Shown here piece by piece: positions 3,097 through 25,150 of a stretch of DNA of 64,000 nucleotides; the first letter of the stretch is position 1; the number at the start of each line of letters is the position of its first letter. A model generated the notes under the pieces. It saw only the letters and a program-made list of their open reading frames with translations, was not told the origin of the DNA and ran no database searches. Location: positions 262,762 through 326,761 of IMG/VR virus record IMGVR_UViG_3300020429_000529, one strand, 5' to 3'. A program made the position numbers and the translations under genes. The DNA is from a virus.

Positions 3097-4098
3097 ATGA
3101 GAGACCCATTTGATGTAAGCCAATATAAGACCTCGTTCGGATTGAACGAGAACTATGCGCCGAATCCGTTTTCATTTGCGGACTTCACGGAATCTTTCGC
3201 GCTCGTCGCAGAGCAAATCCGAATCCGTCAAGCATGTATTCATGTTGGTTTCGGAGTCCCGCTTGATCTGTTTACCAATGTAGAAGCGTATGATGTTTCT
3301 ACTCCTGCTTCGTTGACCGCTGGTGTTGAGCTATTTCAAGATGCTGTGATTGAGCTTGTTGAAGGTACGATCGTCGATCAGTATGCCAAACTACCAGGCT
3401 GCGGTCTGTTTGTTGGCTTCTACACGTTTACCTCGAACGGGTTGCCGATTCTTGGCGAAGGCAGTATCGCTCCGGGAGGAGTCTTTACACCTCCGCCCAA
3501 TCCTGATGACATCACAGACATCATTGATTTTGCGAAAGCGATTGGCGAACGCCTCAATGACATCATCTTTGCGCTGAACAACCTCAGTTTCATTCATGGC
3601 AAGATGGTTTACGAGTATCCGTTCGATGATTCTTGCGGCGATGATTCGTCTCCTGGAACTACTGGTATTTCATCATCGCCAGGTTCATCGCCTGGTTCGT
3701 CAGTTGGTTCATCGGTTGGTTCATCGCCTGGTTCGTCAGTTGGTTCAACGCCTGGAACAGGATCTTCGCCTGGTTCGTCGGTTGGTTCGTCCCCGAACTC
3801 CTCGGTCGGATCATCCCCGAACTCTTCGGTCGGCTCTTCGCCTGGTTCTTCTCCGAACTCGTCGCCTGGTTCGTCTGGCGGTTCTACTCCATCAACAGGA
3901 ACCTCTGCCGGTTCGTCGCCTGGCTCCTCGCCCGGTTCCACTCCGGGAACTGGTTCGTCGCCTGGATCTTCGTCTGGTTCTCCGCCTCCAACGTCGCCAG
4001 GCTCTTCGTATGCTTCGTCTTACGGAAGCCCGCCCGTTTCGCCTGTCGGACCCGTTTCGCCGATCTTTGTCGGACCTGGTGTTGCTCCTGTTGTTTGA
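3097..4098 (+). CDS. Ser/Pro/Gly-rich tandem-repeat (mucin/collagen-like) protein with N-terminal globular domain
   Basis: Globular N-terminus of about 185 aa, then SSPGSSVGSSPN-type repeats encoded by a DNA tandem repeat. Confidence 0.6.
   Translation: MRDPFDVSQYKTSFGLNENYAPNPFSFADFTESFALVAEQIRIRQACIHVGFGVPLDLFTNVEAYDVSTPASLTAGVELFQDAVIELVEGTIVDQYAKLPGCGLFVGFYTFTSNGLPILGEGSIAPGGVFTPPPNPDDITDIIDFAKAIGERLNDIIFALNNLSFIHGKMVYEYPFDDSCGDDSSPGTTGISSSPGSSPGSSVGSSVGSSPGSSVGSTPGTGSSPGSSVGSSPNSSVGSSPNSSVGSSPGSSPNSSPGSSGGSTPSTGTSAGSSPGSSPGSTPGTGSSPGSSSGSPPPTSPGSSYASSYGSPPVSPVGPVSPIFVGPGVAPVV
3655..4020 (+). repeat. coding tandem repeat (about 18-36 nt units, ggttcatcgcctggttcgtcagtt-like)
   Basis: Direct repetition visible in the sequence; encodes the S/P/G repeats of the 3097..4098 protein. 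Confidence 0.7.
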
Positions 4099-8790: not shown

Positions 8791-8803
8791 TCGAAGAACA
8801 GGT

Positions 8804-9160
8804 ATGAACTGGTACAAAACTCTCAAAATGGCTCAGATCGGCGCGCCTGTAGACATGAATGCTACTGAAGCGGTCTATCAAAGACTTCTTCAAGCGGATC
8901 GCTCACAAGCCGATGGAGCGTCCGCTGTGGACGACCTCTACGGACAGGGCTACGACCCAGCCTCGATCGAGGGAGCCATTCAGGAGGCTGTCAGACGCAT
9001 CGTGGGGCCTAATGCTGACGAGACCATGCTATCGCCTGCTCAGCAGAGCGTTTTGATGGCTCTGAGGTCTCAATCCCAGGCACCTCAGCCGCCTGGTCTT
9101 CCTATGGAGCCTATTGATGCTCCGATGGATGAGCCCATTGGCGAAGCATGGTACAATTGA
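8804..9160 (+). CDS. hypothetical protein, MNWYK N-terminal family
   Basis: ATG 8804 preceded by gaagaacaggt; N-terminus MNWYKTLK shared with three ORFs at 40.5-42.4 kb. Confidence 0.5.
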   Translation: MNWYKTLKMAQIGAPVDMNATEAVYQRLLQADRSQADGASAVDDLYGQGYDPASIEGAIQEAVRRIVGPNADETMLSPAQQSVLMALRSQSQAPQPPGLPMEPIDAPMDEPIGEAWYN

Positions 9161-9195
9161 AAAAAGGCCCCGCCCGAAGGCGAGGCCTTTGTTTG
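9160..9195. terminator. bidirectional rho-independent terminator between convergent genes
   Basis: aaaaaGGCCCCGCCcgaaGGCGAGGCCtttgttt, with A-tract 5' and T-tract 3'. Confidence 0.7.
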
Positions 9196-9213
9196 TATCA
9201 GCTTGGCTGAGAG

Positions 9214-10866
9214 TTAGTCGGTCAGCGATCCCGACATGAACGACGAGATGACGTTCGGAGTCGCCGTGTCGAAGCCAACAACATCGAGCATTCCCGGGTC
9301 GCTGGGGTCAGCGATCGAGAAGCCGTTGGAGTTCATCGCAACGACTGCGAGCTTTGCATCCTCAACCCTCTTGGCGCGGTAGCGCTTGAGAGCCTCGAAC
9401 GGGTGGATCGAGCCGTAGTAAGTCTCCGAGTCCGTGAGGACCATGAAGGAGTCGAAGTCATCCTGCAGCGACATGGCGTGCGTCATGGGCAGAGAGCAGT
9501 CCGTGCCGCCGTAGGTGAGACCCGACATCTTCTTGAGAACCTGGTCAAGACGCATACGCGGAGTGATTCCAGCGTCCTTGATTCCCGTATCGAAGACCGT
9601 GATCTCGTAGTTGTTCTCGACGCGAGCCGTGACCATGCTGAGTACCGCCGCAGCCTCCGCGCAGGAGACGTTTTCGATACCGCTGCAAGCAACGCCCATC
9701 GAGCCCGAGGCGTCGATTCCGATGAAGTAGTTCTTACCCGTCGCCTCGACGTTGCCGAACGACGCGTAGAAGGCCTCATCCAGAGCATCAACGATGCGCT
9801 GGTCCGCCTGCCAGGTAAGCTTGCCTCGGAATCCTCCGCCCTGCGAGTAGGTCTTGAGCGCTACAAGGACCGAGAGCGGGTGCACTCGGCTCTTGCGCAG
9901 GTACGACTCGTCCGTGAGCTTGTCAAGAACGATCGCACGGTTCGCGCTCTTACCCGTACCAAGCACGCCGTAGCTCGTCAGACGACCGAGCGAACGGATC
10001 AGCGCCGTGAGCGGCATGCCCGGAAGCATGACCTCCCAAACCTCGCCCTTCGAAGCGAACTCCTTCGGGATCAGTTCGTGCGGCAGGTTGATCTTGTCCG
10101 CGCGGTACTTCTCGATGAGGTCAGCGACCTCCTGAGCCGAACCCGCAGCCTTCATCTGCTCCGCAGCGCGGAGAATCTTCAGGTCTGCAGCGATACGCCC
10201 CGGAAGCTTGCCCTTCGTGACGTAATCGTAGACGCGGTTGTGCTTGGTGTCGCCGAACGGGTGAGCCTTACGCATCAGGTCGCGGTGCGACCAGCGAGAC
10301 TGCGTAACGCCCTCCTCGGTAACGCGCTGCGGGTACTTCACAACCTGGTACGCCAGGCGCGAAGCATCCATCTCGTTGTACCAGCGAGCGATCGCCTTAC
10401 GGAGGCCCGTACCCCAGCCGCGCATCGCCGAAACGTACTGCGCGAACTGGAACAGGTGCGTACCGATACGAGCGACCTTCGGCAGCGAAGCGAGCGCGTA
10501 GGAACGCACTTCGGCGTCCTCAGACGCAGCCGCGATCGCAAGAGCGAAGAGCGCAGGCTCGTTCTTCGGAGCGCGTCCGGCGTCAGAGATCGCGACGATC
10601 TCATCGACCACTCGCTTTCCGTCCTCCTTGAGGCAGCGCAGGATGCAGTTGGCGTTGTCGATCGTGAGCTTGCGCTCGCCGACGTAGTAAGTACCGCCCT
10701 CTGAGCCGAGGATCAAGAATCGGCTGAGCCGATCCCAATCGGAGACCTGAAAGACGTACCCGCCTGCGTTGTTCTTGACCTGATTCTTCCCAAGAGCCTT
10801 GCGGGTCTGAGGAGTCGTTCGCATTCCAAAGTGAGTTGAGTACGCCATTTCTGTCACCCCTTTCAA
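9214..10866 (-). CDS. rsr: Ro60/TROVE-domain ribonucleoprotein (Rsr) with C-terminal vWA domain
   Basis: 550 aa; TROVE-like N-terminal region and C-terminal vWA with DxSGS MIDAS (IGIDASGSM); same architecture as Ro60/Rsr. Confidence 0.8.
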   Translation of the reverse strand: MKGVTEMAYSTHFGMRTTPQTRKALGKNQVKNNAGGYVFQVSDWDRLSRFLILGSEGGTYYVGERKLTIDNANCILRCLKEDGKRVVDEIVAISDAGRAPKNEPALFALAIAAASEDAEVRSYALASLPKVARIGTHLFQFAQYVSAMRGWGTGLRKAIARWYNEMDASRLAYQVVKYPQRVTEEGVTQSRWSHRDLMRKAHPFGDTKHNRVYDYVTKGKLPGRIAADLKILRAAEQMKAAGSAQEVADLIEKYRADKINLPHELIPKEFASKGEVWEVMLPGMPLTALIRSLGRLTSYGVLGTGKSANRAIVLDKLTDESYLRKSRVHPLSVLVALKTYSQGGGFRGKLTWQADQRIVDALDEAFYASFGNVEATGKNYFIGIDASGSMGVACSGIENVSCAEAAAVLSMVTARVENNYEITVFDTGIKDAGITPRMRLDQVLKKMSGLTYGGTDCSLPMTHAMSLQDDFDSFMVLTDSETYYGSIHPFEALKRYRAKRVEDAKLAVVAMNSNGFSIADPSDPGMLDVVGFDTATPNVISSFMSGSLTD

Positions 10867-10878
10867 TCGACTCAGAGC

Positions 10879-11424
10879 CTATTCTCTGAGTATGTGAGTG
10901 ATCTCACAAACTAAATCTTCAATGTGCCTGACATTGCCTCTCGGCAACGCAAACCTGTCTCTGTTCCGTCTAATGAATGACCTTATGCGTTGCAGGTCAT
11001 TCTTGTCAAGTTCCCTCGACGAAATTTCTGCCCGAACTGCTTCCTTCCACTCTTTCAGGTCAGATTTCCGAATCTCCAAGCGAGGATCAAACGGAGTCAT
11101 CCAACCAGCTTCGATGTTCGCCTCCATGAAGTCGCTATAAACCCAACTGCTGATCTCGTATTCATCCTCATGGAGGAAATCTCGACCGGCCTTGTGGATC
11201 GAAAGCGCTCGATGGTGCCCGTCTCGTATGTAGAGGGCCTCGTCTTCGAAGCGAGCGATCTGAATCAGTTGTAGGTGCCCTTCTCCTGTTTCATTCAAAT
11301 GGCGCTGAAGCTCTGCAAGGTTGAACCTGCCTCCCTTGCGGACATGTTCGATCATCCGAGAGATTTGGTCAGTGTCTCTCAGATCGGCATGAGTCGGCAA
11401 CAATTCAGCAATGCGCAGCATCAT
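10879..11424 (-). CDS. ParB/sulfiredoxin-like nuclease domain protein
   Basis: IRDGHHR motif (ParB N-terminal DGHHR signature); stop lies 13 nt upstream of the rsr start. Confidence 0.6.
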   Translation of the reverse strand: MMLRIAELLPTHADLRDTDQISRMIEHVRKGGRFNLAELQRHLNETGEGHLQLIQIARFEDEALYIRDGHHRALSIHKAGRDFLHEDEYEISSWVYSDFMEANIEAGWMTPFDPRLEIRKSDLKEWKEAVRAEISSRELDKNDLQRIRSFIRRNRDRFALPRGNVRHIEDLVCEITHILRE

Positions 11425-11490
11425 ACTGCCATTGTATCATGGTCCTATTCACATTGTTCGGAGGAACGTGGGATTCCTCATGTCAGTAAG

Positions 11491-11565
11491 CGGGGTACAC
11501 GGGGATCGAACCCGCAGCCTCCGGATCGACAGTCCGGTGTTCTTCCATGTGCGAACTCCTACCCC
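11491..11565 (-). tRNA. tRNA-Asp(GTC)
   Basis: Manual cloverleaf: GGGGTAG acceptor, anticodon loop CTGTCGA, T-arm GCGGGTTCGATCCCCGT, discriminator G; 75 nt; no encoded CCA. Confidence 0.65.
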
Positions 11566-11579
11566 GAGTTCTATGTAAG

Positions 11580-11653
11580 CGAGGCCGAAGGGACTCGAAC
11601 CCTCAGTCTCCGGATCGACAATCCGGGGCATTCACCAATTATGCTACGACCCC
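11580..11653 (-). tRNA. tRNA-Asp(GTC), second copy with U32 anticodon-loop variant
   Basis: Cloverleaf GGGGTCG...; loop TTGTCGA; T-arm GAGGGTTCGAGTCCCTT; 74 nt. Confidence 0.6.
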
Positions 11654-11799
11654 AAGTTTTCAAGACGGCAGACTGGTCTTTCACCAATCACGCAGCACAA
11701 CAGAGCGCAGTATCAGAAGGTCTTGGCGTCCGATCAAGGACAGATCCTTATGAGTAACCCCGATGTCGCATGCGGTTGTCCCGCATCGCTACCGTCAAA

Positions 11800-11927
11800 A
11801 GCCGCTGGCAGGATTCGAACCTGCATCCTCCCGCTCCATATGCGATAACCGTTTGTCATCGACTCCTTCGCAGGAGTATGGGTTCGACGAACGACCGTTA
11901 GGCGCTCTACCGTTGAGCTACAGCGGC
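11800..11927 (-). ncRNA. tRNA-like RNA (128 nt): canonical acceptor, D-arm and T-arm, but anticodon arm replaced by a structured domain of about 80 nt
   Basis: GCCGCTG/CAGCGGC acceptor, GCTCAACGGTAGAGC D-arm, GCAGGTTCGAATCCTGC T-arm; no 5-bp/7-nt anticodon hairpin; insert has a CTCCT-GCGA-AGGAG GNRA hairpin inside a CCATA/TATGG stem. Confidence 0.5.
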
Positions 11928-11947
11928 AATCAGTATTCAGTTGTAAA

Positions 11948-12073
11948 TGGCCGGGGCAGGATTCGAACCTGCAAGATCAATTTATGAGATTGATGTGTTG
12001 ATAACCTTCATTCATTCGGCTCATTGCTGAGCATGTTATCGACAAAGGGTTGGTGCCATTACACTACCCGACC
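11948..12073 (-). tRNA. tRNA with CAT anticodon (Met/Ile2-type) carrying a D-loop insertion of about 52 nt (126 nt total)
   Basis: Acceptor GGTCGGG/CCCGGCC; D-stem GTGT...ACAC enclosing the insert (GATAAC/GTTATC stem plus GCTCA-GCAA-TGAGC hairpin); anticodon arm TCAAT-CTCATAA-ATTGA; T-arm GCAGGTTCGAATCCTGC. Confidence 0.45.
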
Positions 12074-12087
12074 TAAGTTCCTTTCAA

Positions 12088-12161
12088 TAGCGGATACGGG
12101 GATCGAACCCGTCTCTGCGGCTTATGAAACCGCCCTCTGCACACCAGCCGAGTCATCCGCA
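12088..12161 (-). tRNA. tRNA with CAT anticodon (Met-type); 1:72 is U-U unpaired
   Basis: Anticodon arm GCGGT-TTCATAA-GCCGC; T-arm ACGGGTTCGATCCCCGT; acceptor 6 bp GCGGAT/ATCCGC plus T1/T72 mismatch; 74 nt. Confidence 0.5.
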
Positions 12162-12380
12162 ATCTAAACACGGTTTGCAGGTCATTCTCCTGCCGGGCCT
12201 ACCCTCGGATCAGTCCGAGATCGGTCAGCGTTTGCAACCGCTCCTGCTTCTCGCAGGCGGAACCGTAAAACGTAGCGCCGTCTTTCGACGAGCGCTACAT
12301 GGGGCCGGTTGCGGGTGCCGAAGCACCAGCGTGGCCTCCACCACTTGCTCTTTTGCTTGAGAAGCAAGAAACTCGTTCAA

Positions 12381-12454
12381 TAGCGGGGGAAGGATTCGAA
12401 CCTCCGACCTTTTGGTTATGAGCCAAATGAGCTACCAGACTGCTCTACCCCGCA
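12381..12454 (-). tRNA. tRNA-Met(CAT), initiator-like
   Basis: Near-identical to bacterial tRNA-fMet: GCGGGG-TA-GAGCAGTCTGGTAGCTC...CTCATAA...GGTTCGAATCC; 1:72 U-U mismatch; 74 nt. Confidence 0.6.
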
Positions 12455-12532
12455 ATCAATAAAACAGATATGTTGGCGTTGCTTGGACCTTTGTGTGAGA
12501 TAAGTTAACCAATCAACTTCGACCTGTTTTAA

Positions 12533-12604
12533 TCAGAGTGACAGGAATCGAACCTGCTTAGACCTGGCCCCAAACCAGGCGACCTGCCAATGGCCCACAC
12601 TCTG
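12533..12604 (-). tRNA. tRNA-Pro(TGG)
   Basis: C1-G72, A73; anticodon arm CCTGG-TTTGGGG-CCAGG; T-arm GCAGGTTCGATTCCTGT; 72 nt. Confidence 0.65.
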
Positions 12605-12780
12605 TAATCGATGCTTGCTCCGTCCTCACAACCTCTTACTCTTGGACAGAATCGGGAGCTTACCCCGACAGACTTGCCTTCTTAGGGCGTGCGATCGTGC
12701 GCCGAGGTTTGGTAACGCCGATCTTATCTCCCCGCCTAAACGGGTCTCTGCAAACATCATCTGCTATTCGATTGTCAAAG

Positions 12781-12855
12781 TCGGAGTGATTGGATTCGAA
12801 CCAACGACCTTCTGTCCCCCAGACAGACGCGCTCACCAAGCTGCGCCACACTCCG
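12781..12855 (-). tRNA. tRNA-Pro(GGG)
   Basis: C1-G72, A73; anticodon arm TCTGT-CTGGGGG-ACAGA; T-arm GTTGGTTCGAATCCAAT; 75 nt. Confidence 0.65.
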
Positions 12856-13059
12856 AAACAAGAACAAGTATGGGGTGCCAAGGGAGACCCGACAGATAAT
12901 GTAAGCTCCTGCCTTTGACAGCAGTACGAGACACTTTGCGATTCGCTGGGCTCTGCCGATCTCAGCAAGCTGAGATTTACCCGAGAATCATGTCTCAAGC
13001 TTTTCGCGTAATTGATAACCCTACAGCTTCGACCTGTTCTTCTTATTCAGTTTTCAAAG

Positions 13060-13133
13060 TCAGGATGAAAGGATTTGAACCTTCGACCTCTTACTCCCGA
13101 AGCAAGCGCTCTGCCAAGCTGAGCTACACCCTG
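13060..13133 (-). tRNA. tRNA-Pro(CGG)
   Basis: C1-G72, A73; anticodon arm CTTGC-TTCGGGA-GTAAG; T-arm GAAGGTTCAAATCCTTT; 74 nt. Confidence 0.6.
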
Positions 13134-13247
13134 ATGATTCGCAAGTATGGGGCGGCAGAAGAGTTTGGCTTTCGCCACTTTGTGATCAATACAAGGTGTT
13201 AACCTTCAAACCTTCGACCTGCGAGTCGTTCTTATTCAGTTGTCAAG

Positions 13248-13353
13248 CGCCCTCGATTGGATTCGAACCAACTGTAACCAGGATAACCGTTAACTGTCGG
13301 CCCAATCGGGCATGTTGTCGCCAACGGATCGTGACCCTTGCGGGTCCGAGGGC
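13248..13353 (-). ncRNA. tRNA-like RNA (106 nt): acceptor stem and T-arm present, GNRA hairpin immediately after 5' acceptor strand, no anticodon arm identified
   Basis: GCCCTCG/CGAGGGC acceptor; GTTGGTTCGAATCCAAT T-arm; GACCC-GCAA-GGGTC hairpin; GCCC-GATT-GGGC hairpin. Confidence 0.45.
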
Positions 13354-13894
13354 ATTCTAAAAAAAAGCAGGTATGGGTCGCAGAAGGCGTTACGTTTCAA
13401 GTTAACCTTGTTGCATCGACCTGCAATCGTTCTGTGTTTTGTACGAGGCGTGGGATTCCTCGGTCTGTCAGTGTCTCATCTATCGATCATCGGCAGAGAA
13501 GACTCCCAAGATTCCACGCAGTTTCCTACGAAAATCTTGGACTTTATTCAGTTGTGGAAGTGAGATCGACCTGCTTAGGGGCTCAGATTAGGCCGCCGTA
13601 TCAGTAAACCCGAACGGCGGCAATGCAGGGTCTTCTGCACTTCCGTGGCGATTCGGTTGATCGCCAATCATCTTGTTGATGGTCCGTTCCATGGTCTCCT
13701 CGGTCGTTCAGAGAGGGGCTGTCCCCTCATATAACGCAGAGCTTAGCAGTTTGTTCCGCCCTGTCAAGAGCCTCTATCGACTTTTTTCGCTCTCGACATG
13801 AATGGCAGTATACCAACTCAGTCGTCACCTGCAACCACTTCTTCGTCAGTGGCCAGAATTCCTTCTTGAATATCCAAAAATCTGCCGAACAAGG

Positions 13895-14530
13895 TCATTG
13901 GGTCGTCATGCCGACTTCGGCGATCCCCATTTCTTTGCGGATCTCGGTCGAAGACAACCCGATCAGCGCATCATTGAGAGGCTCTTCGGGTACAAAGTTG
14001 ATCGGCAACTGACCTGGCAGATCGTTGATCGTCCAGAGCTTGTCGTTCATGCGCCTCGGGTAGACATGGAACAAAGCTCTGATGCCCTGCGTCCCGACTG
14101 TCGAGTGCATGGAGACGATCCGCAGCGCCGTATCGATACCGATATGGATATGGATGTCTCGGACAGCAGCAAGAACGCCAGTCTTGTCGTAGAAGAGAGG
14201 ATGCTTCGAGACGATCAGCGGACCTTCGTCGTTGAACTGAGTCGCTCGCCCTTCCATGATCTTCGACTCGATCGTGCCCTTGTTGGCTCGGTCGATTGAC
14301 ATCTCGTAGCAGACATGGGCCGTAGGACCGGCGATCTCCGCTGCTCGCTGGTAGATGGCTCGATGGCCGTCATGGATGGGATTGAAAGATCCTGGTACGA
14401 GATGCAGTACCGAATCGCCGAACGGATGTTCGTCGCCGTTGATCGGATCGATCGCGCCGTTGGGATGGCGGACAAAAGCAAACAACGGGTCGTTCTGACA
14501 GGTGTGGTATGCGATCTCAAAGGTATACAT
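13895..14530 (-). CDS. nicotinamide/nicotinate mononucleotide adenylyltransferase (NMNAT, cytidylyltransferase superfamily)
   Basis: GSFNPIHDGH, the (H/T)xGH nucleotidyltransferase motif; start overlaps the upstream stop. Confidence 0.65.
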   Translation of the reverse strand: MYTFEIAYHTCQNDPLFAFVRHPNGAIDPINGDEHPFGDSVLHLVPGSFNPIHDGHRAIYQRAAEIAGPTAHVCYEMSIDRANKGTIESKIMEGRATQFNDEGPLIVSKHPLFYDKTGVLAAVRDIHIHIGIDTALRIVSMHSTVGTQGIRALFHVYPRRMNDKLWTINDLPGQLPINFVPEEPLNDALIGLSSTEIRKEMGIAEVGMTTQ

Positions 14531-15217
14531 TCAACCCTCTCCGTCAAGCCAGTGGTTGTGGTCTTCGGTCAGACCTCCGCTGCCAGAATCGTAGAGACGA
14601 GCAATATACTCGCCATTATTCAAGCTGGCAAACGACGGGTCATTGAGAAGCAGCGACATAACGGCGCGAGAGATAGATTCATCTTCCGCTCGACGCCGAC
14701 CGGCGAGCGCCTGCATGTTGACGCCTCCGTCAACAATGTAGAGAGCTTCCCATTCGGCCTTCTCTTGCTTCGAGATGGCGATCTTGTAGAACTCTCGGCT
14801 TCCGTCAGGTCGATGGATGCCTACAAAGGCTCGGTTATCGCCTCGACGCCAGCGCGTCGTCGTCAGCGCCGCTGAAATTACGATGCTGATGATCGGAGCA
14901 ACGCTGTTGCCCCTGTTGCGATGTTCGAGCGCTTGCAGGTACTTGGAGATGGTCTTCTCGGAGCAGAAGTCGAACTTGTCGAGCGCTCCAAGCGTCGGCT
15001 CAAGGAACCTCAGCGTTTCGCCCTGCTCGTAAGGCATATGCATGCCCAGGATCCTCGCAGAGGCTCCAGGAACGATCAGAAGCTCTCCGAGGCTCATGCC
15101 GCCGCCCGTAGCGAACAGCGACAGCAGAGGAGCCTTAGAGCCGTCTCCTACCTCGTCCAGATACCTCTCAGAGAACTGGACGACGGCTTCGGGATAATCG
15201 AGTACCCATTGACTCAT
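14531..15217 (-). CDS. CinA C-terminal domain-like protein (possible NMN deamidase PncC-like)
   Basis: LFATGGGMSLGELLIVPGASARILGMHMPY resembles the CinA_C ESCTGG...PGSS...GG.V.Y signature; lies between NAMPT and NMNAT. Confidence 0.4.
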   Translation of the reverse strand: MSQWVLDYPEAVVQFSERYLDEVGDGSKAPLLSLFATGGGMSLGELLIVPGASARILGMHMPYEQGETLRFLEPTLGALDKFDFCSEKTISKYLQALEHRNRGNSVAPIISIVISAALTTTRWRRGDNRAFVGIHRPDGSREFYKIAISKQEKAEWEALYIVDGGVNMQALAGRRRAEDESISRAVMSLLLNDPSFASLNNGEYIARLYDSGSGGLTEDHNHWLDGEG

Positions 15218-15225
15218 GATCGCTC

Positions 15226-16788
15226 CTAAGCGGCGGCTGCCGCCTTCATTGCAACGATCTCGGGCAGTTCGGCTCGTTCGCGGACCTCAGCAAAAGTCCA
15301 TTCCTGAACGATCTCCCCGTCTCGGAAGACCTCAACAAGCAGGTCTCCGCCGAAATCATCAACATTCTCATTGAGGGTATTGATGGTCCGCAGCGTACCG
15401 CCATCGTTGACGAGCGCCAGCAGACCTCGCTTGCTGTTCTTGCTGCTGCCGGTCTTGGGTTGCTTGTAGACCTCAAAGCCTTCGCCGTTGATCTCGCTGT
15501 AGCAAGCCTTGAAAGCGCAAGCGTAGGTGTCTCGGTTCATCTTCTGCAACAGAGCGCCGCCGCTGCCGAAGGCCAGGTTCTCGACAGACCATCCGGCATC
15601 GACAACCGCTTGCAGAATCGCTCGGAGGCTTCGCCAGTTGATACCATCGCCCTGAATGACTCGAATCGAGTCATGCAGAACCTTGTAGCCCTTGGCGTTT
15701 TCGGTGTACCCGAACTTCTCGCCGAGGACTTCGAGAACCTTGGGGACGATCTCGGTCGGTTCGCCCGAATCGGGACGAACAACCAGAACGCCCTCTCGTT
15801 CCATGATCTGTTCCTTGAGTTCTCCGCCCCAGACATCGGCGCAGAGTCCGAACAGGTCATAGGAATCAGAAACGCAGGCAACAAAGCCCGTTGGGAACTG
15901 TTCGACCAGACGGCGACAGATTTCTCGTTCGCCTTGCGGACCCTTGATGGTCATGATCGAGTGTTCGGTTGCGGGGATGCTGTAGCCGCTCATTGTTCGG
16001 CTGTAGAACTCGTCCCATGCTCGGAACGAATCATCTGCATCCCAGTCGCCATGAGGAGTAATGCCAATTCGATCGTATTCGAGCAGCTTCTCGAACTCGT
16101 CGCCCTGGTAGAACTGCGTTGTCATCTCGATCGCAGCCATCGTATCGGTGCCTGCAAAGTTGACGAGATGGGCCGCTCCGCCCAGCGCTGCGCTTTCGAC
16201 GCTCGATACGCCTCGGTAGCCGAAGTCATGCAGGCGACTCGGCATGAGGATGGGGATCAGATGATCCTCGGTCGTCATCTGCATGAACTCGAAGATGGTC
16301 TGCTTGCAGGAGCGAGACAGCGAGGCGACGGTCATTGGATACCAGACTTGTACGAGAATGGTTTCCAAGAAGTTCGTCAGCCAGAAGCAGTTCGGGTCGG
16401 TGTTCTCGATCATCATGAGGACATTCGAGACCGGAACGACCGTACCTTCGGGGACGGCCCGAATCGTTACCGGCAGTCGTCCGCCATGGTTCTTGATGAT
16501 GTATCGCCAGCCCTCTTCATTGAAGAGCGTTTCATCGCCCATGAAGTGGTGCTTACAGAAGGCCTTGATGCGAGGCAGATCATGGTAGCCAACGACGCCG
16601 CCTCGGAAGAACCGCTTGAGGAAGTATTGCAGACCGAAGAAGACGGTTTCGTCAGAGAAGTCTGAACCCGCCCTCGCCTCGAAATACGAGACCAGCCGCT
16701 CAACGCCTTCAACATAAAGACGATGATGCGTGATCTTGTAGCTGTCGGTAAAGTTGGGCAACGAAAGATGAAGTGCCTGCGCTACCAT
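15226..16788 (-). CDS. nadV: nicotinamide phosphoribosyltransferase (NAMPT)
   Basis: 520 aa; N-terminal SYKITHH...YFLKRF and overall NAMPT/NadV-like sequence; adjacent to NMNAT as in phage NAD salvage modules. Confidence 0.75.
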   Translation of the reverse strand: MVAQALHLSLPNFTDSYKITHHRLYVEGVERLVSYFEARAGSDFSDETVFFGLQYFLKRFFRGGVVGYHDLPRIKAFCKHHFMGDETLFNEEGWRYIIKNHGGRLPVTIRAVPEGTVVPVSNVLMMIENTDPNCFWLTNFLETILVQVWYPMTVASLSRSCKQTIFEFMQMTTEDHLIPILMPSRLHDFGYRGVSSVESAALGGAAHLVNFAGTDTMAAIEMTTQFYQGDEFEKLLEYDRIGITPHGDWDADDSFRAWDEFYSRTMSGYSIPATEHSIMTIKGPQGEREICRRLVEQFPTGFVACVSDSYDLFGLCADVWGGELKEQIMEREGVLVVRPDSGEPTEIVPKVLEVLGEKFGYTENAKGYKVLHDSIRVIQGDGINWRSLRAILQAVVDAGWSVENLAFGSGGALLQKMNRDTYACAFKACYSEINGEGFEVYKQPKTGSSKNSKRGLLALVNDGGTLRTINTLNENVDDFGGDLLVEVFRDGEIVQEWTFAEVRERAELPEIVAMKAAAAA

Positions 16789-16811
16789 TGGTTGTTCCTT
16801 GCTCTTGCGGC

Positions 16812-16982
16812 TTAGCTGCCGACCGTGTACCTGATTCCCTTGACGATCAGTCCCTTGGGCGAGATCAGGGCGACTTGGGACTTGGCGTCATCCAGATCGC
16901 ATCCATTTTCTCGTACAAGGATCTCGATGAGTTCATCCTTGCTGACCGTCTTGATTTCCATGGTGGGTGTTTCGTCGCTCAT
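16812..16982 (-). CDS. small hypothetical protein (56 aa), absent from ORF track
   Basis: ATG(16980-16982)...TAA(16812-16814) in the gap between NAMPT and the channel gene, co-oriented. Confidence 0.3.
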   Translation of the reverse strand: MSDETPTMEIKTVSKDELIEILVRENGCDLDDAKSQVALISPKGLIVKGIRYTVGS

Positions 16983-17016
16983 GGCTGTTCCTCCCTAATG
17001 CTCCACGCAGCCCTTG

Positions 17017-18129
17017 TCAGTGGCCGAAGTATTTCATGCTGATTTCCTTGATCTCGTCCTGGGAGGCAAGGATAGCAAGATTCGCCTGTTCAACGAGAGG
17101 GCTTCCTTGACGGAAAGCGATGCCGTAGTTCTGCGGGGCGAATGTCGTATCCGCCATGACGACGACATCTTGACCTTCTCCGTTCGCGAAAAACGCCAGG
17201 TTCGGGACATCGCCAACAACAGCCTCGACTCGGCCCATGATAAGAGCAGCGATACACTGGTCGTAGTTGTCGTACTCCCTGACGATGCCATTGTAGAACT
17301 CAACCTCATCGACGCTGGTCGTTCCGCTGACGACAGCGATCTTCTTGCCCTTGAGATCGGAGGGACCATCGATCCGAGCTTCAAACTGCTGAACAACATT
17401 GAACGAGGTAATCGAAGCAGTCAGCGAACTGACGAGGATTGCAACGCAGAAGAAGCAGAGGACAGCAACGATTCGAGCGGCAACGCGCTTGGGGTAAACA
17501 TCGCCGTAGCCGATTGTCGAACCTGTTGTAAAGGCGAGCCAGACAGAGTTTGCGCTGCCCTTCATGACTTCCATAAAGGTCAGTCCGTCGTCGTCATTAG
17601 CATCTTGCTTGCGCTGATCGTCTGTAATGTAGAGAAGAAAACCAAAGACGCAGAGAGCCGCCAAGAACAATGCGCAGATGACGAGAAGGTTGACGATCAG
17701 GGGGATGCGGACTTCGATCCATGCTTGAATCGATGAAACAAAATCCTGGTTCGATTCTTCGGCGATCATAATGCCGAGACCCGTATTCATGTACGGTTGA
17801 GAGAAGTCGTAGATCTGCTCTCGTTCGAGATTGATCGTAATCCCGTTCATGATGCCGTCGATCTGATTGTCGCCCTGAAGCGCCGTGAACAGGTCGGCAA
17901 AGCGATCAAAATGAACAACCTCGACTTGCCAGTTGGCTGTGTCGCCGATCGTTGACAGAACTTCTGCATCGAAACCAGACATTGAGCCGTTTTCGCCTTC
18001 GATGAAGAAGGGTTCTTCGGCGACGATACCGATTCGAACAGTTCTCGGTTCAGAGACCTGAATGGGATCGCTCTGCGCCGATGCGACTGTTGCAAAGAGT
18101 GCGATGACTGCAAGAACGAGAGTCTTCAT
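17017..18129 (-). CDS. GluR0-like ligand-gated potassium channel (SBP lobe 1 - M1-P-M2 with TIGYGD filter - SBP lobe 2)
   Basis: Signal peptide MKTLVLAVIALFATVASA; family-3 SBP-like halves interrupted by two TM helices and pore helix with TTGSTIGYGDVYP; AGGAGA 7 nt upstream of ATG 18129. Confidence 0.65.
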   Translation of the reverse strand: MKTLVLAVIALFATVASAQSDPIQVSEPRTVRIGIVAEEPFFIEGENGSMSGFDAEVLSTIGDTANWQVEVVHFDRFADLFTALQGDNQIDGIMNGITINLEREQIYDFSQPYMNTGLGIMIAEESNQDFVSSIQAWIEVRIPLIVNLLVICALFLAALCVFGFLLYITDDQRKQDANDDDGLTFMEVMKGSANSVWLAFTTGSTIGYGDVYPKRVAARIVAVLCFFCVAILVSSLTASITSFNVVQQFEARIDGPSDLKGKKIAVVSGTTSVDEVEFYNGIVREYDNYDQCIAALIMGRVEAVVGDVPNLAFFANGEGQDVVVMADTTFAPQNYGIAFRQGSPLVEQANLAILASQDEIKEISMKYFGH

Positions 18130-18144
18130 CTCGGGTCTCCTGAG

Positions 18145-18180
18145 TTTGAAAAAGCCCCTCGTCCTGCGGAACAGGACGAG
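18145..18180 (-). terminator. rho-independent terminator downstream of the PspA-like gene
   Basis: CTCGTCCTG-cggaa-CAGGACGAG hairpin followed on the minus strand by GGGGCTTTTTC. Confidence 0.7.
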
Positions 18181-18200
18181 AGGCAAAGTGAGGGGGTGAT

Positions 18201-23884: not shown

Positions 23885-24727
23885 TTACGCTCTCGCTCGG
23901 TACTTCCTGTCCCATGCCTTGAGCTTGTCAAGGTCAAAGTTGGCGTTGTTGTTTCGCAGCTTCCCTTTGCCCCAGAACATCTCGATCATCCGATCCTTCG
24001 GTAACAGCTTCGTCGTCTTGTCGTCAGTGGTCGGAGACCATCCGAGACGAGCAACGCAGTTGAGTATAGCGTCGGGATGGTAGGATTTCATCAACTCGTC
24101 AAGAGATAGTCCATCGTCTCGCTTTGACAGTTTTCTGCCCTCGTGCATGATAAGACCGACATGGTAGAAGTCTGGCAGATCAGCGCCGAGCGCAGCAAAC
24201 AGCATCGCCTGGAATGACGTATTCGTCGTATGGTCCTTGCCTCGGATGACGCAATCGATTCCAAGCTCTATGTCGTCGATGACGGTTGCGAAGTTGTAAG
24301 TCGGCGTCCCGTCTTGTTTTCGTAGGATCTTGTTGCCAGCAATGCTCTTGTCGGTATCAGAGATACAGATCTGACCAGCGATGCCGTCTGTCCAGTGATC
24401 GAGATCGACGCCTCGGAGATCGCTCAGAACAACTCCGTAACCATTGTCGCTTGCCCATCCATCTGCGATGAGCCGATCGATGTAGCTGTTGTAGATGTCG
24501 ATACGATCGCTTTGATGAACGAGATCATCGTAGTCGAGACCAAAGTGCCCGAGCATGCTGACGATCTCTTTTGTATGGATCGCTTTTGATCGAGATTTAT
24601 CGGTGTCATCGATCCGTACAACAAAAGAGCCGCCCGTTGAACGAGCGGCTAACCAGTTTTGGTATGCTGTTCTAAGCGAGCCGAGATGCGGCGATCCCGT
24701 TGGCGATGGTGCGAATCTCGTTTTCAT
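23885..24727 (-). CDS. truncated class-I glutamyl-tRNA synthetase paralog (glutamyl-Q tRNA(Asp) synthetase-like, catalytic domain only)
   Basis: HIGH-type RFAPSPTGSPHLGS; KLSKR (KMSKS-type, as AKLSKQ in GluQRS/YadB); 280 aa with no anticodon-binding domain. Confidence 0.7.
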   Translation of the reverse strand: MKTRFAPSPTGSPHLGSLRTAYQNWLAARSTGGSFVVRIDDTDKSRSKAIHTKEIVSMLGHFGLDYDDLVHQSDRIDIYNSYIDRLIADGWASDNGYGVVLSDLRGVDLDHWTDGIAGQICISDTDKSIAGNKILRKQDGTPTYNFATVIDDIELGIDCVIRGKDHTTNTSFQAMLFAALGADLPDFYHVGLIMHEGRKLSKRDDGLSLDELMKSYHPDAILNCVARLGWSPTTDDKTTKLLPKDRMIEMFWGKGKLRNNNANFDLDKLKAWDRKYRARA

Positions 24728-24743
24728 GGCTCAATCTCCTGAA

Positions 24744-24818
24744 TGACGCTGAAGGGAATCGAACCCTCGGACTTCTCCTTGAGAGGGAGAGATTTCTACC
24801 AGCAGAAACTACAGCGCC
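24744..24818 (-). tRNA. tRNA-Glu(CTC)
   Basis: Acceptor GGCGCTG/CAGCGTC; anticodon arm TCTCC-CTCTCAA-GGAGA; T-arm GAGGGTTCGATTCCCTT; 75 nt; 17 nt upstream of the GluRS-like start. Confidence 0.6.
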
Positions 24819-24823
24819 TCGAA

Positions 24824-24895
24824 TGACCCCTACGGGACTCGAACCCGTATTACAGCCTTGAAAGGGCCGCGTCCTAACCATTAGACGAAGGGGCC
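24824..24895 (-). tRNA. tRNA-Glu(TTC)
   Basis: GGCCCCT...; D GTCT-AATGGTTA-GGAC; anticodon arm CGGCC-CTTTCAA-GGCTG; T-arm ACGGGTTCGAGTCCCGT; 72 nt. Confidence 0.6.
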
Positions 24896-24905
24896 AGATT
24901 GTAAA

Positions 24906-24980
24906 TGACGCTGACGGGACTCGAACCCGCGAACTTCGGGATGAAAACCCGAGATTTCTGCCCACAGAAACTACAGCGCC
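24906..24980 (-). tRNA. tRNA-Glu(TTC), U32/U38 loop variant
   Basis: Same acceptor as 24744..24818; anticodon arm TCGGG-TTTTCAT-CCCGA; T-arm GCGGGTTCGAGTCCCGT; 75 nt. Confidence 0.55.
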
Positions 24981-24987
24981 ATGTAAA

Positions 24988-25062
24988 GTGACCCCACCGG
25001 GATTCGAACCCGGATTCCGACCTTGAGAGGGTCGTGTCCTAAACCTGCTTAGACGACAGGGC
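24988..25062 (-). tRNA. tRNA-Glu(CTC)
   Basis: GGCCCTG...; anticodon arm CGACC-CTCTCAA-GGTCG; T-arm CCGGGTTCGAATCCCGG; three G-U pairs in acceptor; 75 nt. Confidence 0.5.
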
Positions 25063-25075
25063 CAAAATTTGAAAG

Positions 25076-25150
25076 CACTCCCAAGGGGATTCGAACCCCT
25101 ATCGCTTGGATGAGAACCAAGTATCCTGAACCAGATTAGACGATGGGAGC
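25076..25150 (-). tRNA. tRNA-Glu(CTC), U32/U38 loop variant
   Basis: GCTCCCA...; anticodon arm CTTGG-TTCTCAT-CCAAG; T-arm AGGGGTTCGAATCCCCT; 75 nt. Confidence 0.5.

Follow-up and report, generated by a model that had tools for sequence, protein, structure and literature searches.

The conservation of Ro60 and its Y RNAs extends from bacteria to humans, and how Y RNAs arose from tRNAs is debated. Which RNAs, then, would serve the Ro60 protein of a phage whose rsr gene stands directly behind a long array of tRNA genes? We met this question in a stretch of 64,000 nucleotides (nt) from a virus record of IMG/VR (IMGVR_UViG_3300020429_000529, positions 262,762 to 326,761), hereafter the window, in which an RNA array, a gene for a ParB-like protein, the Ro60 (rsr) gene and a terminator follow each other in this order, all on the minus strand. 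We interpret the region, with a probability of about 0.72, as a Ro60/Y-RNA module of a marine phage that combines tRNAs, Y RNAs homologous to YrlA but laid out in tRNA order, and small Y-like modules, together with a mechanism for their processing and for Ro60 binding. YrlA is the tRNA-mimicking Y RNA of bacteria and mycobacteriophages (PMC4201824; bioRxiv 10.1101/312249).

The array between 11490 and 13353 comprises ten genes by ARAGORN, Rfam models and folding, i.e., seven true tRNAs (three for Pro, two Met with a CAU anticodon and two for Asp) and three tRNA-shaped RNAs, which we call elements A, C and B in their 5'-to-3' order. This agrees with a preliminary description, made from the letters of the stretch alone, which had counted ten tRNA or tRNA-like genes on the minus strand; its further claim of two tRNA-shaped RNAs without an anticodon arm was right as to the shape but not as to the number, as there are three and one of them keeps an anticodon-like hairpin. 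ARAGORN by itself reported eight minus-strand tRNAs within 11490-13133 (Asp-GUC twice, CAU three times, and Pro-UGG, Pro-GGG and Pro-CGG), and the Rfam tRNA model backed most of these calls. The last tRNA is separated by 65 nt from an open reading frame (ORF) of 181 amino acids, and this by 12 nt from the Ro60 ORF. The identity of the latter, already proposed in the preliminary description, is beyond doubt: it contains the TROVE (PF05731, E 1.6e-38) and vWA_Ro60 (PF25045, E 5.8e-58) domains, both far past their cut-offs, and over residues 18-547 it matches the characterized Ro60 proteins of Xenopus (1yvp, E 4.8e-119), human (9nen, 4.3e-118) and Deinococcus radiodurans (Rsr, 2nvo, 2.2e-103). 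The ORF begins with a TTG at 10866, and an ATG 18 nt downstream gives the 544-amino-acid form found in databases. Behind it lies the only strong terminator-like site within 8800-14200, a hairpin that can be read on both strands, as had been said of it before.

We then examined how the three tRNA-shaped RNAs are built. Element A has an acceptor stem of 7 bp and, where the D arm should be, a GNRA hairpin; an arm that we call the Y arm (GCCC-GAUU-GGGC, then GCCGACAG...ACGGUUAUC) and a T arm are also present, but there is no anticodon arm, and the minimum free energy fold of the element reproduces exactly these assigned arms. In element B, a 7-bp acceptor stem, a D arm and a T arm surround a Ro-binding-type arm that takes the place of the anticodon arm (hairpin CUCCU-GCGA-AGGAG, then GUCGAUGAC...ACGGUUAUC). 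Element C has an acceptor stem, a D arm, a Y arm (GCUCA-GCAA-UGAGC, then GCCGAAUG...AGGUUAUC), an anticodon-like hairpin with the loop CUCAUAA and a T arm. The tRNA-like module of T arm, D arm and acceptor is therefore complete in B and C, and A has all of it save for the hairpin in the D place. The Rfam tRNA model (RF00005) does not report A at all; it gives C 26.9 bits, below the threshold of 29, at a "tRNA-Met" called by ARAGORN (11948-12021) that is in fact the 3' part of this element; and it accepts B, at 50.9 bits over the whole model, only by skipping a 69-nt insert that replaces 13 nt around the anticodon loop.

The Y arms carry a sequence that points to Ro60. A probable Rsr-binding motif, GNCGAAN0-1G, has been described near the 5' end of YrlA and YrlB and is related to the GGUCCGA contacted by Xenopus Ro60 (Chen et al. 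2014, PMC4201824). In the window, a two-part motif consisting of G-N-CGA-(A/U)-G and, after 3-14 nt, GGUUA(A/U)C occurs seven times, always on the minus strand and within 11863-13420, where chance would give ~1.5 copies in the whole 64 kb on both strands. Its first part reads GUCGAAG in three copies (those of three spacer modules described below), GUCGAUG in two (element B among them), GCCGAAUG in element C and GCCGACAG in element A, so that four of the seven fit GNCGAAN0-1G exactly. The three elements lie 0.9-2.5 kb upstream of the Ro60 gene on the same strand, as do their counterparts in related loci; in the survey of Chen et al., YrlA was required to be encoded within ~4 kb of the Ro60 gene (PMC4201824).

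Comparison across loci supported these structures. We aligned 13 tRNA-shaped elements, of which the window contributed two, three related phage contigs (L001, L004 and L005) nine, and the IMG/VR contigs L044 and L051 one each. G-CCGA(U/A) and A-CGGUUAUC vary little or not at all among them, and RNAalifold recovered the acceptor, D and T arms together with two Y-arm helices, with compensatory changes in 18 of 24 pairs. The Y arm, which occupies the anticodon position, has CCGU/ACGG as its basal helix and a hairpin (S1) at its distal end, with GNCGA directly 3' of S1. Pairing within each window element is complete, both in the acceptor (7/7) and in S1 (4/4 or 5/5), and each element alone folds better than its shuffled versions (z -2.5 to -3.5).

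The order of the arms in these elements differs from that of YrlA. The Rfam YrlA model runs from the Ro-binding stem through the T arm, a closed acceptor hairpin and the D arm back to the Ro-binding stem, whereas the tRNA-shaped elements end in a 7-bp acceptor stem and close their Ro-binding helix with a 4-nt loop, a topology other than that of YrlA. We permuted the elements in silico by cutting them in the S1 loop and joining their acceptor ends. The re-permuted copies aligned end to end with five classical YrlAs, including that of mycobacteriophage Sparky (KM083128), at a mean column identity of 66% and with compensatory changes in 17 of 25 pairs. Classical-order RNAs were also present in three IMG/VR loci found by a pattern scan (L020, L034 and L039), each just upstream of a Ro60 gene; these share GCCGAU...CGGUUAUC...hairpin...T arm with the window elements, but their acceptor hairpin is closed.

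To compare both orders we used two covariance models, R1, built from seven re-permuted sequences only, and R2, built in tRNA order. R1 matched the classical RNAs over their full length (L034, 81.6 bits; L039, 79.8; L020, 73.4, 68.1, 63.7 and 49.7), while R2 gave the same RNAs only 26-38 bits; likewise, the Sparky YrlA scored 57.2 bits with R1 (E ~2e-12) and only 29.1 with R2. Elements in tRNA order from outside the training set scored 50-105 bits with R2, including window element A at 50.2 bits (E ~2e-10), all these E-values being rough because the training sets are small.

Since R1 also matches across adjoining elements (window 11873-12023, 61.9 bits; L069 3545-3685, 81.6 bits), and since a weak match to the Rfam YrlA model (11904-11974, model positions 29-81) spans two adjacent elements in that same register, we considered whether the real RNAs could be classical YrlAs that start at the Y motif of one unit, pass through its T arm and a long acceptor loop, and take in the D arm of the following unit. 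This is hardly credible. Across the C-to-B junction only 3 of 7 acceptor pairs and 2 of 5 S1 pairs can form, compared with 7/7 and 5/5 within the elements; the within-element acceptor pairs covary in the 13 sequences; the would-be acceptor loop contains a conserved trailer motif (see below); element A stands isolated between two free-standing modules; and R2 prefers the tRNA order at these loci, while R1 prefers the classical loci. From the model scores, the permuted alignment, the mispairing at the junction and the trailer in the would-be loop, we conclude on sequence grounds that A, B and C are circularly rearranged homologs of YrlA.

We next asked how widely this arrangement is conserved. 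A close homolog of the ParB-like protein (~39-51% identity) is encoded in eleven loci (L001, L004, L005, L060-L063 and L066-L069), in all of them immediately before Ro60 or with a single small ORF in between. Pro, Met and Asp tRNAs lie upstream in ten of the eleven, the remaining one (L063) having no upstream DNA, and Y elements were detected in those ten; the motif scan revealed them in nine, R1 in L069. In the latter (3485-4015), three tandem tRNA-order elements score 72-92 bits with R2 and read GGGUUGAUGG at the position of the Ro motif, with U for C in GNCGA; either the motif tolerates this U or the Ro60 there recognizes another feature.

Related RNAs also occur outside these phages. A single-protein search of IMG/VR for Ro60 loci returned nothing, and a degenerate RNA pattern scan gave 53 matches in IMG/VR and 120 loci in GTDB (one genome per species). 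Most of these lay inside genes by chance (48 of 53 and ~110 of 120) and matches were kept only with a T arm and a Ro60 neighbor; Ro60 stood beside the RNA in four of the five true IMG/VR matches and in all seven convincing GTDB matches. Among the latter, tRNA-order elements adjoin Ro60 in metagenome-assembled genomes (MAGs) of Armatimonadetes (L099, 2.16-Mb contig; R2 91 and 58 bits), Chloroflexia (L185, 2.36-Mb contig; six in tandem, 59-90 bits), Polyangiaceae (L092; four, 67-105 bits) and Myxococcota (L129; 84 bits), and none of these four loci has the ParB-like gene. Locus L160, from Nocardia terrae, looks classical by acceptor pairing alone (7/7 in the classical register at 3099).

Could the locus nevertheless be an ordinary phage tRNA array, in which A, B and C are tRNA pseudogenes or spliced tRNAs and the adjacency to Ro60 is a coincidence? 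Phage tRNA arrays are common, and another one lies in the window itself at 24744-25150; the tRNA model covers element B in full length, and the anticodon-type loop of element C is perfect. However, the inserts bear the conserved Ro-binding motif, and they can be aligned with YrlA from end to end; they are conserved with compensatory changes although the Ro60 proteins concerned are only 54-64% identical to that of the window; they recur beside Ro60 in bacterial MAGs; at ~56-70 nt they are far below the size of group I introns; RNA-only searches lead to Ro60 loci; and the array, the ParB-like gene and Ro60 occur together in at least 11 related loci. We consequently regard this explanation as very improbable. 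Synteny and covariance models thus bear out what the preliminary description had supposed, that the array holds more than ordinary tRNAs and stays a neighbor of the ParB-like gene and rsr, and that the place beside rsr usually taken by Y RNAs is filled here by tRNA-shaped RNAs of the array, given their Rsr-binding motif and homology to YrlA.

Table 1. Positions of the RNA and protein features of the Ro60 locus in the window, in the direction of the minus strand.
Feature	Position	Strand	Evidence or remark
Probable module I-1 (CAGGUCGAUGC...GGUUAAC...CCCAU-ACCUG)	13368-13423	-	Motif; R1 20.7 bits
Element A, tRNA-shaped Y RNA, 106 nt	13248-13353	-	R2 50.2 bits, E 2e-10; z -3.5; acceptor 7/7
Probable module I-2 (CAGGUCGAAGG...GGUUAAC...CCCCAU-ACUUG)	13142-13221	-	Motif; R1 21.7 bits, E 0.006
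tRNA-Pro(CGG), then trailer 13043-13057	13059-13133	-	ARAGORN; Rfam 61.4 bits
Probable module I-3, long internal insert	12865-13036	-	Motif, end helix
tRNA-Pro(GGG), then trailer 12764-12778	12780-12855	-	ARAGORN; Rfam 62.8 bits
tRNA-Pro(UGG)	12533-12604	-	ARAGORN; Rfam 48.4 bits
Probable module I-4 (CAGGUCGAAG...GGUUAAC...CAACAU-AUCUG)	12465-12526	-	Motif; weak fold, z -0.8
tRNA, CAU anticodon	12380-12455	-	ARAGORN; Rfam 65.6 bits
tRNA, CAU anticodon, atypical D arm	12087-12162	-	ARAGORN; Rfam 34.9 bits
Element C, tRNA-shaped Y RNA, 126 nt	11948-12073	-	R2 82.5 bits (training member); z -2.5; fold
3' trailer motif, UUUACAACUGAAUA-type	11933-11947	-	Motif count
Element B, tRNA-shaped Y RNA, 128 nt	11800-11927	-	R2 107.4 bits (training member); z -3.4; acceptor 7/7, S1 5/5
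tRNA-Asp(GUC)	11579-11653	-	ARAGORN; Rfam 65.3 bits
tRNA-Asp(GUC), atypical D arm	11490-11565	-	ARAGORN; Rfam 31.6 bits, partial match
ParB/sulfiredoxin-fold protein (predicted), 181 amino acids, DGHHR motif	10879-11424	-	Upstream partner of Ro60
Ro60 (rsr) gene	9214-10866	-	TROVE, vWA_Ro60, phrog_850
Intrinsic-terminator-like hairpin	9163-9190	-, + strand readable too	12 pairs (8 G-C), loop 4, T run

The ten genes are not all that the array contains. Its spacers hold four modules, I-1 to I-4 (Table 1), which had been missed when the array was first described as consisting of tRNAs and tRNA-like genes, and with which the feature reaches upstream to ~13423. Module I-1 has an ortholog at L001 2515-2570, with UGAGC/GCUCA as S1, and the 5' 45 nt of I-3 are 85-89% identical to L001 and L044. 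The last five bases of a module can pair with the five bases ending at the N of GNCGA, and this end helix varies across loci while staying complementary (CAGGU/ACCUG, UGAGC/GCUCA, UGGGC/GCCCA, UGGGU/ACCCA, CGAGU/ACUCG, GAAGC/GCUUC and CAAGC/GCUUG). Each of the four modules is probably a small Y RNA that may be compared with YrlB or with Yrl1 and Yrl2 of the Thermus phage phiLo.

A second recurrent sequence is a 15-nt trailer, UU(U/G)A(C/A)AA(C/U)(U/C)GAAUA, with four minus-strand copies in the window (13232-13246, behind element A, and three in Table 1) against 0.03 expected. It begins 1-2 bases past the 3' end of four tRNA or tRNA-like genes, and it is present in every related Ro60 array (L001, L004, L005, L060-L062, L066-L069 and L044) and in one of six Ro60-less ParB-like loci scanned (L065); in the Armatimonadetes locus L099, CAAUUGAAUAA directly follows the tRNA-order element. 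The trailer may be a 3'-processing signal. Two other readings of it were discarded: as a sigma-70 promoter (TTGACA) it lacks a -10 element at the proper distance, and a minus-strand promoter scan found none; and its UUGAC could pair in the window with the GUCGA of the next or preceding module, as in a Ro helix of the metazoan type, but L001, L004 and L005 do not preserve this pairing.

The interpretation as a Ro60/Y-RNA module draws on the anatomy of the locus, homology by permutation, covariation and conserved synteny. Several observations weigh against it and are reflected in our estimate. Three of the seven motif copies, including those of A and B, are one base off GNCGAAN0-1G, and L069 reads GUUGAUG. 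The best window match of the Rfam YrlA model (RF02553) reaches 24.2 bits against a threshold of 69; since the known YrlA of Sparky and the other phage YrlAs also fall below this threshold (31.7-36.8 bits), the model is tight for phage sequences. The training sets of R1 and R2 are small, and ordinary tRNAs reach 25-42 bits with R2. The free-standing modules fold no better than shuffled sequence (z -0.5 to -1.0) and receive only 20-22 bits from R1, and their end helix was found by seeking complementarity: a module's own strands are complementary in 26 of 27 cases, compared with 50% for foreign 5' strands, a control that backs the helix but not strongly, and a shuffle control was too permissive (chance rate 0.3-0.8). 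Because of these folds, scores and closure controls, support for the modules is weaker than for the tRNA-shaped elements. On the minus strand, a scan of 9200-14200 found neither a sigma-70-type promoter nor a strong terminator, leaving the unit without an identified promoter, and neither PNPase (polynucleotide phosphorylase) nor RNA-repair genes were found among the ~50 window ORFs scanned. Finally, expression, RNA ends and Ro60 binding of the array RNAs are deduced from sequence.

The weak folds and marginal R1 scores of the four modules, and their position exactly between a 3' trailer motif and the next tRNA, would also suit leaders or trailers of tRNA precursors, which could act as processing signals, promoters or docking sites for Ro60 rather than as independent Y RNAs. 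We think this somewhat unlikely. The modules carry the two-part motif of the tRNA-shaped elements and of classical YrlA (G-N-CGA-W-G and GGUUAWC), their 5-nt end helix changes between loci with complementarity kept, in L001 they follow each other back to back with no tRNA between (2750-2887 and 2901 onward), and there is no sigma-70-type promoter at these sites. We thus continue to treat them as probable small Y RNAs.

The gene between the array and Ro60 was characterized by comparison and structure prediction. An AlphaFold 2 model built on an alignment of 54 sequences assigns the 181-amino-acid protein a ParB/sulfiredoxin (Srx) fold. No Pfam threshold is passed, the best match being to ParBc_2 (PF08857; 15.7 bits against 23.6), for which 21 of the 54 relatives also give weak matches (best E 8e-04). 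In its DGHHR motif, G69 and R72 are invariant among the 54 relatives and D68, H70 and H71 nearly so, and the segment aligns with the DGVHR of SbnI. The equivalent segment is a nucleotide-binding motif in ParB/Srx-type families, and by this likeness we infer that DGHHR binds nucleotide here as well. Structural kin include Atu1540 (ParBc_2, PDB 2hwj), sulfiredoxin, SerK/SbnI and the ParB/KorB/Noc CTPases; unlike these, the 181-amino-acid protein has a distinct C-terminal helical part, and a DNA-binding helix-turn-helix was not seen in it. Of the label "ParB-like nuclease" used in the preliminary description, the fold and the DGHHR motif hold, and "nuclease" is a family label only.

The family numbers 472 representatives. 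Around its distant members (31-41% identity), Ro60, a tRNA array and the Y motif were absent within 5 kb, so the pairing with Ro60 belongs to this phage clade, not to the protein family at large. Neighbors of the Ro60-less members (L064, L065 and L071-L075), read from translations, include a peptide deformylase (L064), a methionine aminopeptidase (L071), a ClpX-like ATPase with an HD-like protein (L065) and HNH proteins, and no common theme was seen among the neighbors of the distant homologs. Our best guess, held with low confidence, is that the protein is a nucleotide-dependent accessory of the Ro60 ribonucleoprotein (RNP).

Taken together, these features suggest how the module might work. 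One or a few precursors would be transcribed through the array, the ParB/Srx-fold gene and Ro60, as is suggested by the short gaps and by the scan that found no internal sigma-70 promoter or strong terminator, which would also suit the array leading straight into the two genes, as the preliminary description had it. Host RNase P and 3' tRNA processing would excise the tRNAs and the tRNA-shaped Y RNAs and thereby free the spacer modules, and the phage Ro60 ring would bind the helix with the GNCGA-type motif. The tRNA-like body would then serve as an effector-binding module, most likely for host PNPase, as a Y RNA tethers Ro60 to PNPase in Deinococcus and Salmonella (PMC4201824) and in phage phiLo (PMC12135203); in consequence, host exoribonucleases might be redirected to structured RNA during infection. 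The ParB/Srx-fold protein could take part as a nucleotide-binding accessory of the RNP.

It is also conceivable that the RNAs are real Ro60 ligands whose main role lies with the tRNA machinery and not in tethering PNPase, i.e., that they are decoys or sensors for tRNA-cleaving defense nucleases of the host or guides that lead Ro60 to pre-tRNAs of the phage itself for quality control, and that they might gain CCA or be aminoacylated. Their open 7-bp acceptor with a discriminator base resembles the substrates of RNase P and of the CCA-adding enzyme, the YrlA of Mycobacterium smegmatis is cleaved by RNase P and then receives CCA (PMC4201824), A, B and C are embedded among tRNAs with C showing an anticodon-like loop, and the ORF scan mentioned above gave no PNPase. 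Nonetheless, we consider such a main role improbable, since in every system studied (Deinococcus, Salmonella and phiLo) a Y RNA links Ro60 to the PNPase of the host, for which a phage-encoded PNPase is not needed. A PNPase tether therefore seems the likelier function of the tRNA-like bodies.

How does the locus compare with known Ro60 systems? Ro60 with neighboring tRNA-like Y RNAs is already known in phages: Ro60 with YrlA has been described in mycobacteriophages (Chen et al. 2014, PMC4201824), Ro/TROVE proteins have been noted in some jumbo phages (Iyer et al. 2021), and a structural study has treated the Ro60 of phiLo, which binds host PNPase and two Y-like RNAs encoded upstream of it (PMC12135203). 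Like A, B and C, YrlA lies close to Ro60 and has a GNCGAA-type motif followed by a helix and by mimics of the T arm, D arm and acceptor, and the YrlAs of phages and actinobacteria share the GGUUAUC block and a hairpin before the T arm with the window elements. YrlA differs in that it ends in the Ro-binding helix with the acceptor closed, where the window RNAs end in the 7-bp acceptor with the Ro helix closed, and in that the window has several copies interleaved with real tRNAs. In Sparky, tRNA-Ser, -Pro, -Trp and -Tyr, YrlA, a small ORF and Ro follow each other on one strand in the gene order of the window, so the neighborhood itself is not new, but Sparky has a single YrlA in classical order and its small ORF encodes 45 amino acids and not a ParB-like protein.

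Yrl1 and Yrl2 of phiLo resemble the free-standing modules in being small, in lying upstream of a phage Ro60 and in presenting CGAA in a stem-bulge-stem. The phiLo Ro60 is distant from that of the window (E 5e-07, compared with 1e-119 for Xenopus Ro60), and tRNA-shaped forms, a tRNA array and a ParB-like partner are not reported there. In Yrn1 of D. radiodurans and in metazoan Y RNAs the ends pair and the 5' strand is GGUC(C)GA-like, while the window modules start with CAGGUCGA(A/U)G. In Yrn1, a T-like and a D-like arm follow each other in the reverse of the YrlA order (Chen et al., PMC4201824); unlike in A, B and C, the Ro-binding helix of Yrn1 is formed by the RNA ends and a 7-bp acceptor is not reported, a comparison made by description only. 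In the literature we covered, which is incomplete and leaves out some reviews, we found neither a description of Y RNAs in tRNA order nor a report of a ParB-like partner of Ro60. Four features appear to be new: the strand order in which the Y RNAs are laid out, how many of them a locus contains, the way they alternate with tRNAs and the conserved ParB/Srx-fold partner, which the preliminary description had already singled out as unfamiliar beside Ro60 and which proved to be conserved in the phage clade.

The source of the window is a marine phage of roughly 0.5 Mb. Marine metagenomes, those of Tara Oceans among them, contain contigs of 498-502 kb that encode identical Ro60 and ParB-like proteins, and syntenic relatives of the locus lie on contigs of 212-487 kb; both observations identify the source as a marine phage of very large size. 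Among the deposited phages of INPHARED, none was found to be closely related to the window. Many window proteins are without a known family, and others include a sigma factor, a glutamine-synthetase-like protein, NAMPT, a glutamate-receptor-like channel, flotillin, a DNA methylase and UvdE. Upstream of the array, the minus strand at 13895-18186 encodes a cytidylyltransferase-like (NMNAT-like) protein, a 228-amino-acid protein without a Pfam match, NAMPT and a glutamate-receptor-like ligand-gated channel, and since this order is repeated in L060 and L062, an NAD-salvage module adjoins the Ro60 module in these phages. The second tRNA array (24744-25150, minus strand) has five tRNA-Glu-type genes with CUC and UUC anticodons, one of them (24906-24980) found by Rfam only, and lies directly upstream of a 280-amino-acid catalytic domain of a class I Glu/Gln tRNA synthetase (23885-25150 overall, minus strand), which has no anticodon-binding part and resembles glutamyl-Q tRNA(Asp) synthetase in length.

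Other features of the array itself were noted. The Rfam alignment gives both CAU tRNAs (12380-12455 and 12087-12162) a U at position 1 and a U at 72, a non-standard pair. The 217-nt spacer between them (12163-12379, minus strand) folds at -93.4 kcal/mol (z -3.7, with 0 of 200 shuffles as good) and has a CCCCAUG-hairpin-ACGGUU segment that is Y-arm-like but without the GNCGA motif; blastn showed no conservation of this spacer in related loci. The 175-nt spacer between tRNA-Pro(GGG) and tRNA-Pro(UGG) (12605-12779, minus strand) is 82% identical over 164 nt to positions 3131-3291 of L069, a 487-kb contig whose Ro60 is only 57% identical, and probably represents a further conserved non-coding RNA. 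The wcaG RNA motif is matched below its threshold of 42 bits, both in the window (12329-12434, minus strand, 25.1 bits), where the match overlaps a tRNA and is probably spurious, and in L004 (922-1020, 33 bits), where it sits in a spacer with two similar hairpins. Two blocks are common to L004 and L005, here given in this order of loci: the first (235-340/1035-1150) contains GGCAGGUCGAGG..CCUUGACAC, a metazoan-like Ro helix with a tiny closing loop, and the second (1345-1560/1515-1740), of ~200 nt, precedes tRNA-Met.

What would these RNAs mean for the biology of Ro60? YrlA resembles a circularly permuted tRNA, and an origin from dimeric tRNA has been discussed (Wang et al. 2018, bioRxiv 10.1101/312249). 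The window RNAs look like the missing unpermuted counterpart of YrlA, with a normal tRNA frame and the Ro60-binding helix in the anticodon position, and their frequent tandem copies are an arrangement from which classical YrlA could arise by fusion; with both strand orders and the tandem arrangement at hand, the question of origin becomes testable by phylogeny. We put forward, as a tentative possibility, that Y RNAs in tRNA order are a widespread, overlooked and possibly ancestral class and that megaphages have an RNP with a ParB/Srx-fold cofactor. If so, there would be a class of Y RNAs processed by RNase P, 3' trimming and CCA addition, with the Ro60-binding arm in the place of the anticodon arm; classical YrlA may derive from fused tandem copies in tRNA order, in keeping with a dimeric-tRNA origin (bioRxiv 10.1101/312249); and in megaphages a tRNA-punctuated precursor would yield several such Y RNAs at once along with free-standing Y modules, from which, with a new nucleotide-dependent cofactor of the ParB/Srx fold, a phage Ro60 RNP would be assembled to take control of RNA decay in the host or to protect the tRNAs of the phage.

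Such genes are mishandled both by tRNA finders, as when ARAGORN takes part of element C for a tRNA-Met, and by YrlA searches. The survey of Chen et al. dropped all candidates that overlap tandem tRNA genes (PMC4201824), so elements of the present type would be lost from it. Owing to these finders and this filter, tRNA counts of large phages would be partly inflated, and Ro60 loci that seem to have no Y RNA may have one. The layout predicts that tRNA-processing enzymes release Y RNAs, in cells as well as in phages, possibly with CCA ends, and it makes the ParB/Srx-fold protein a new candidate component of the Ro60 RNP.

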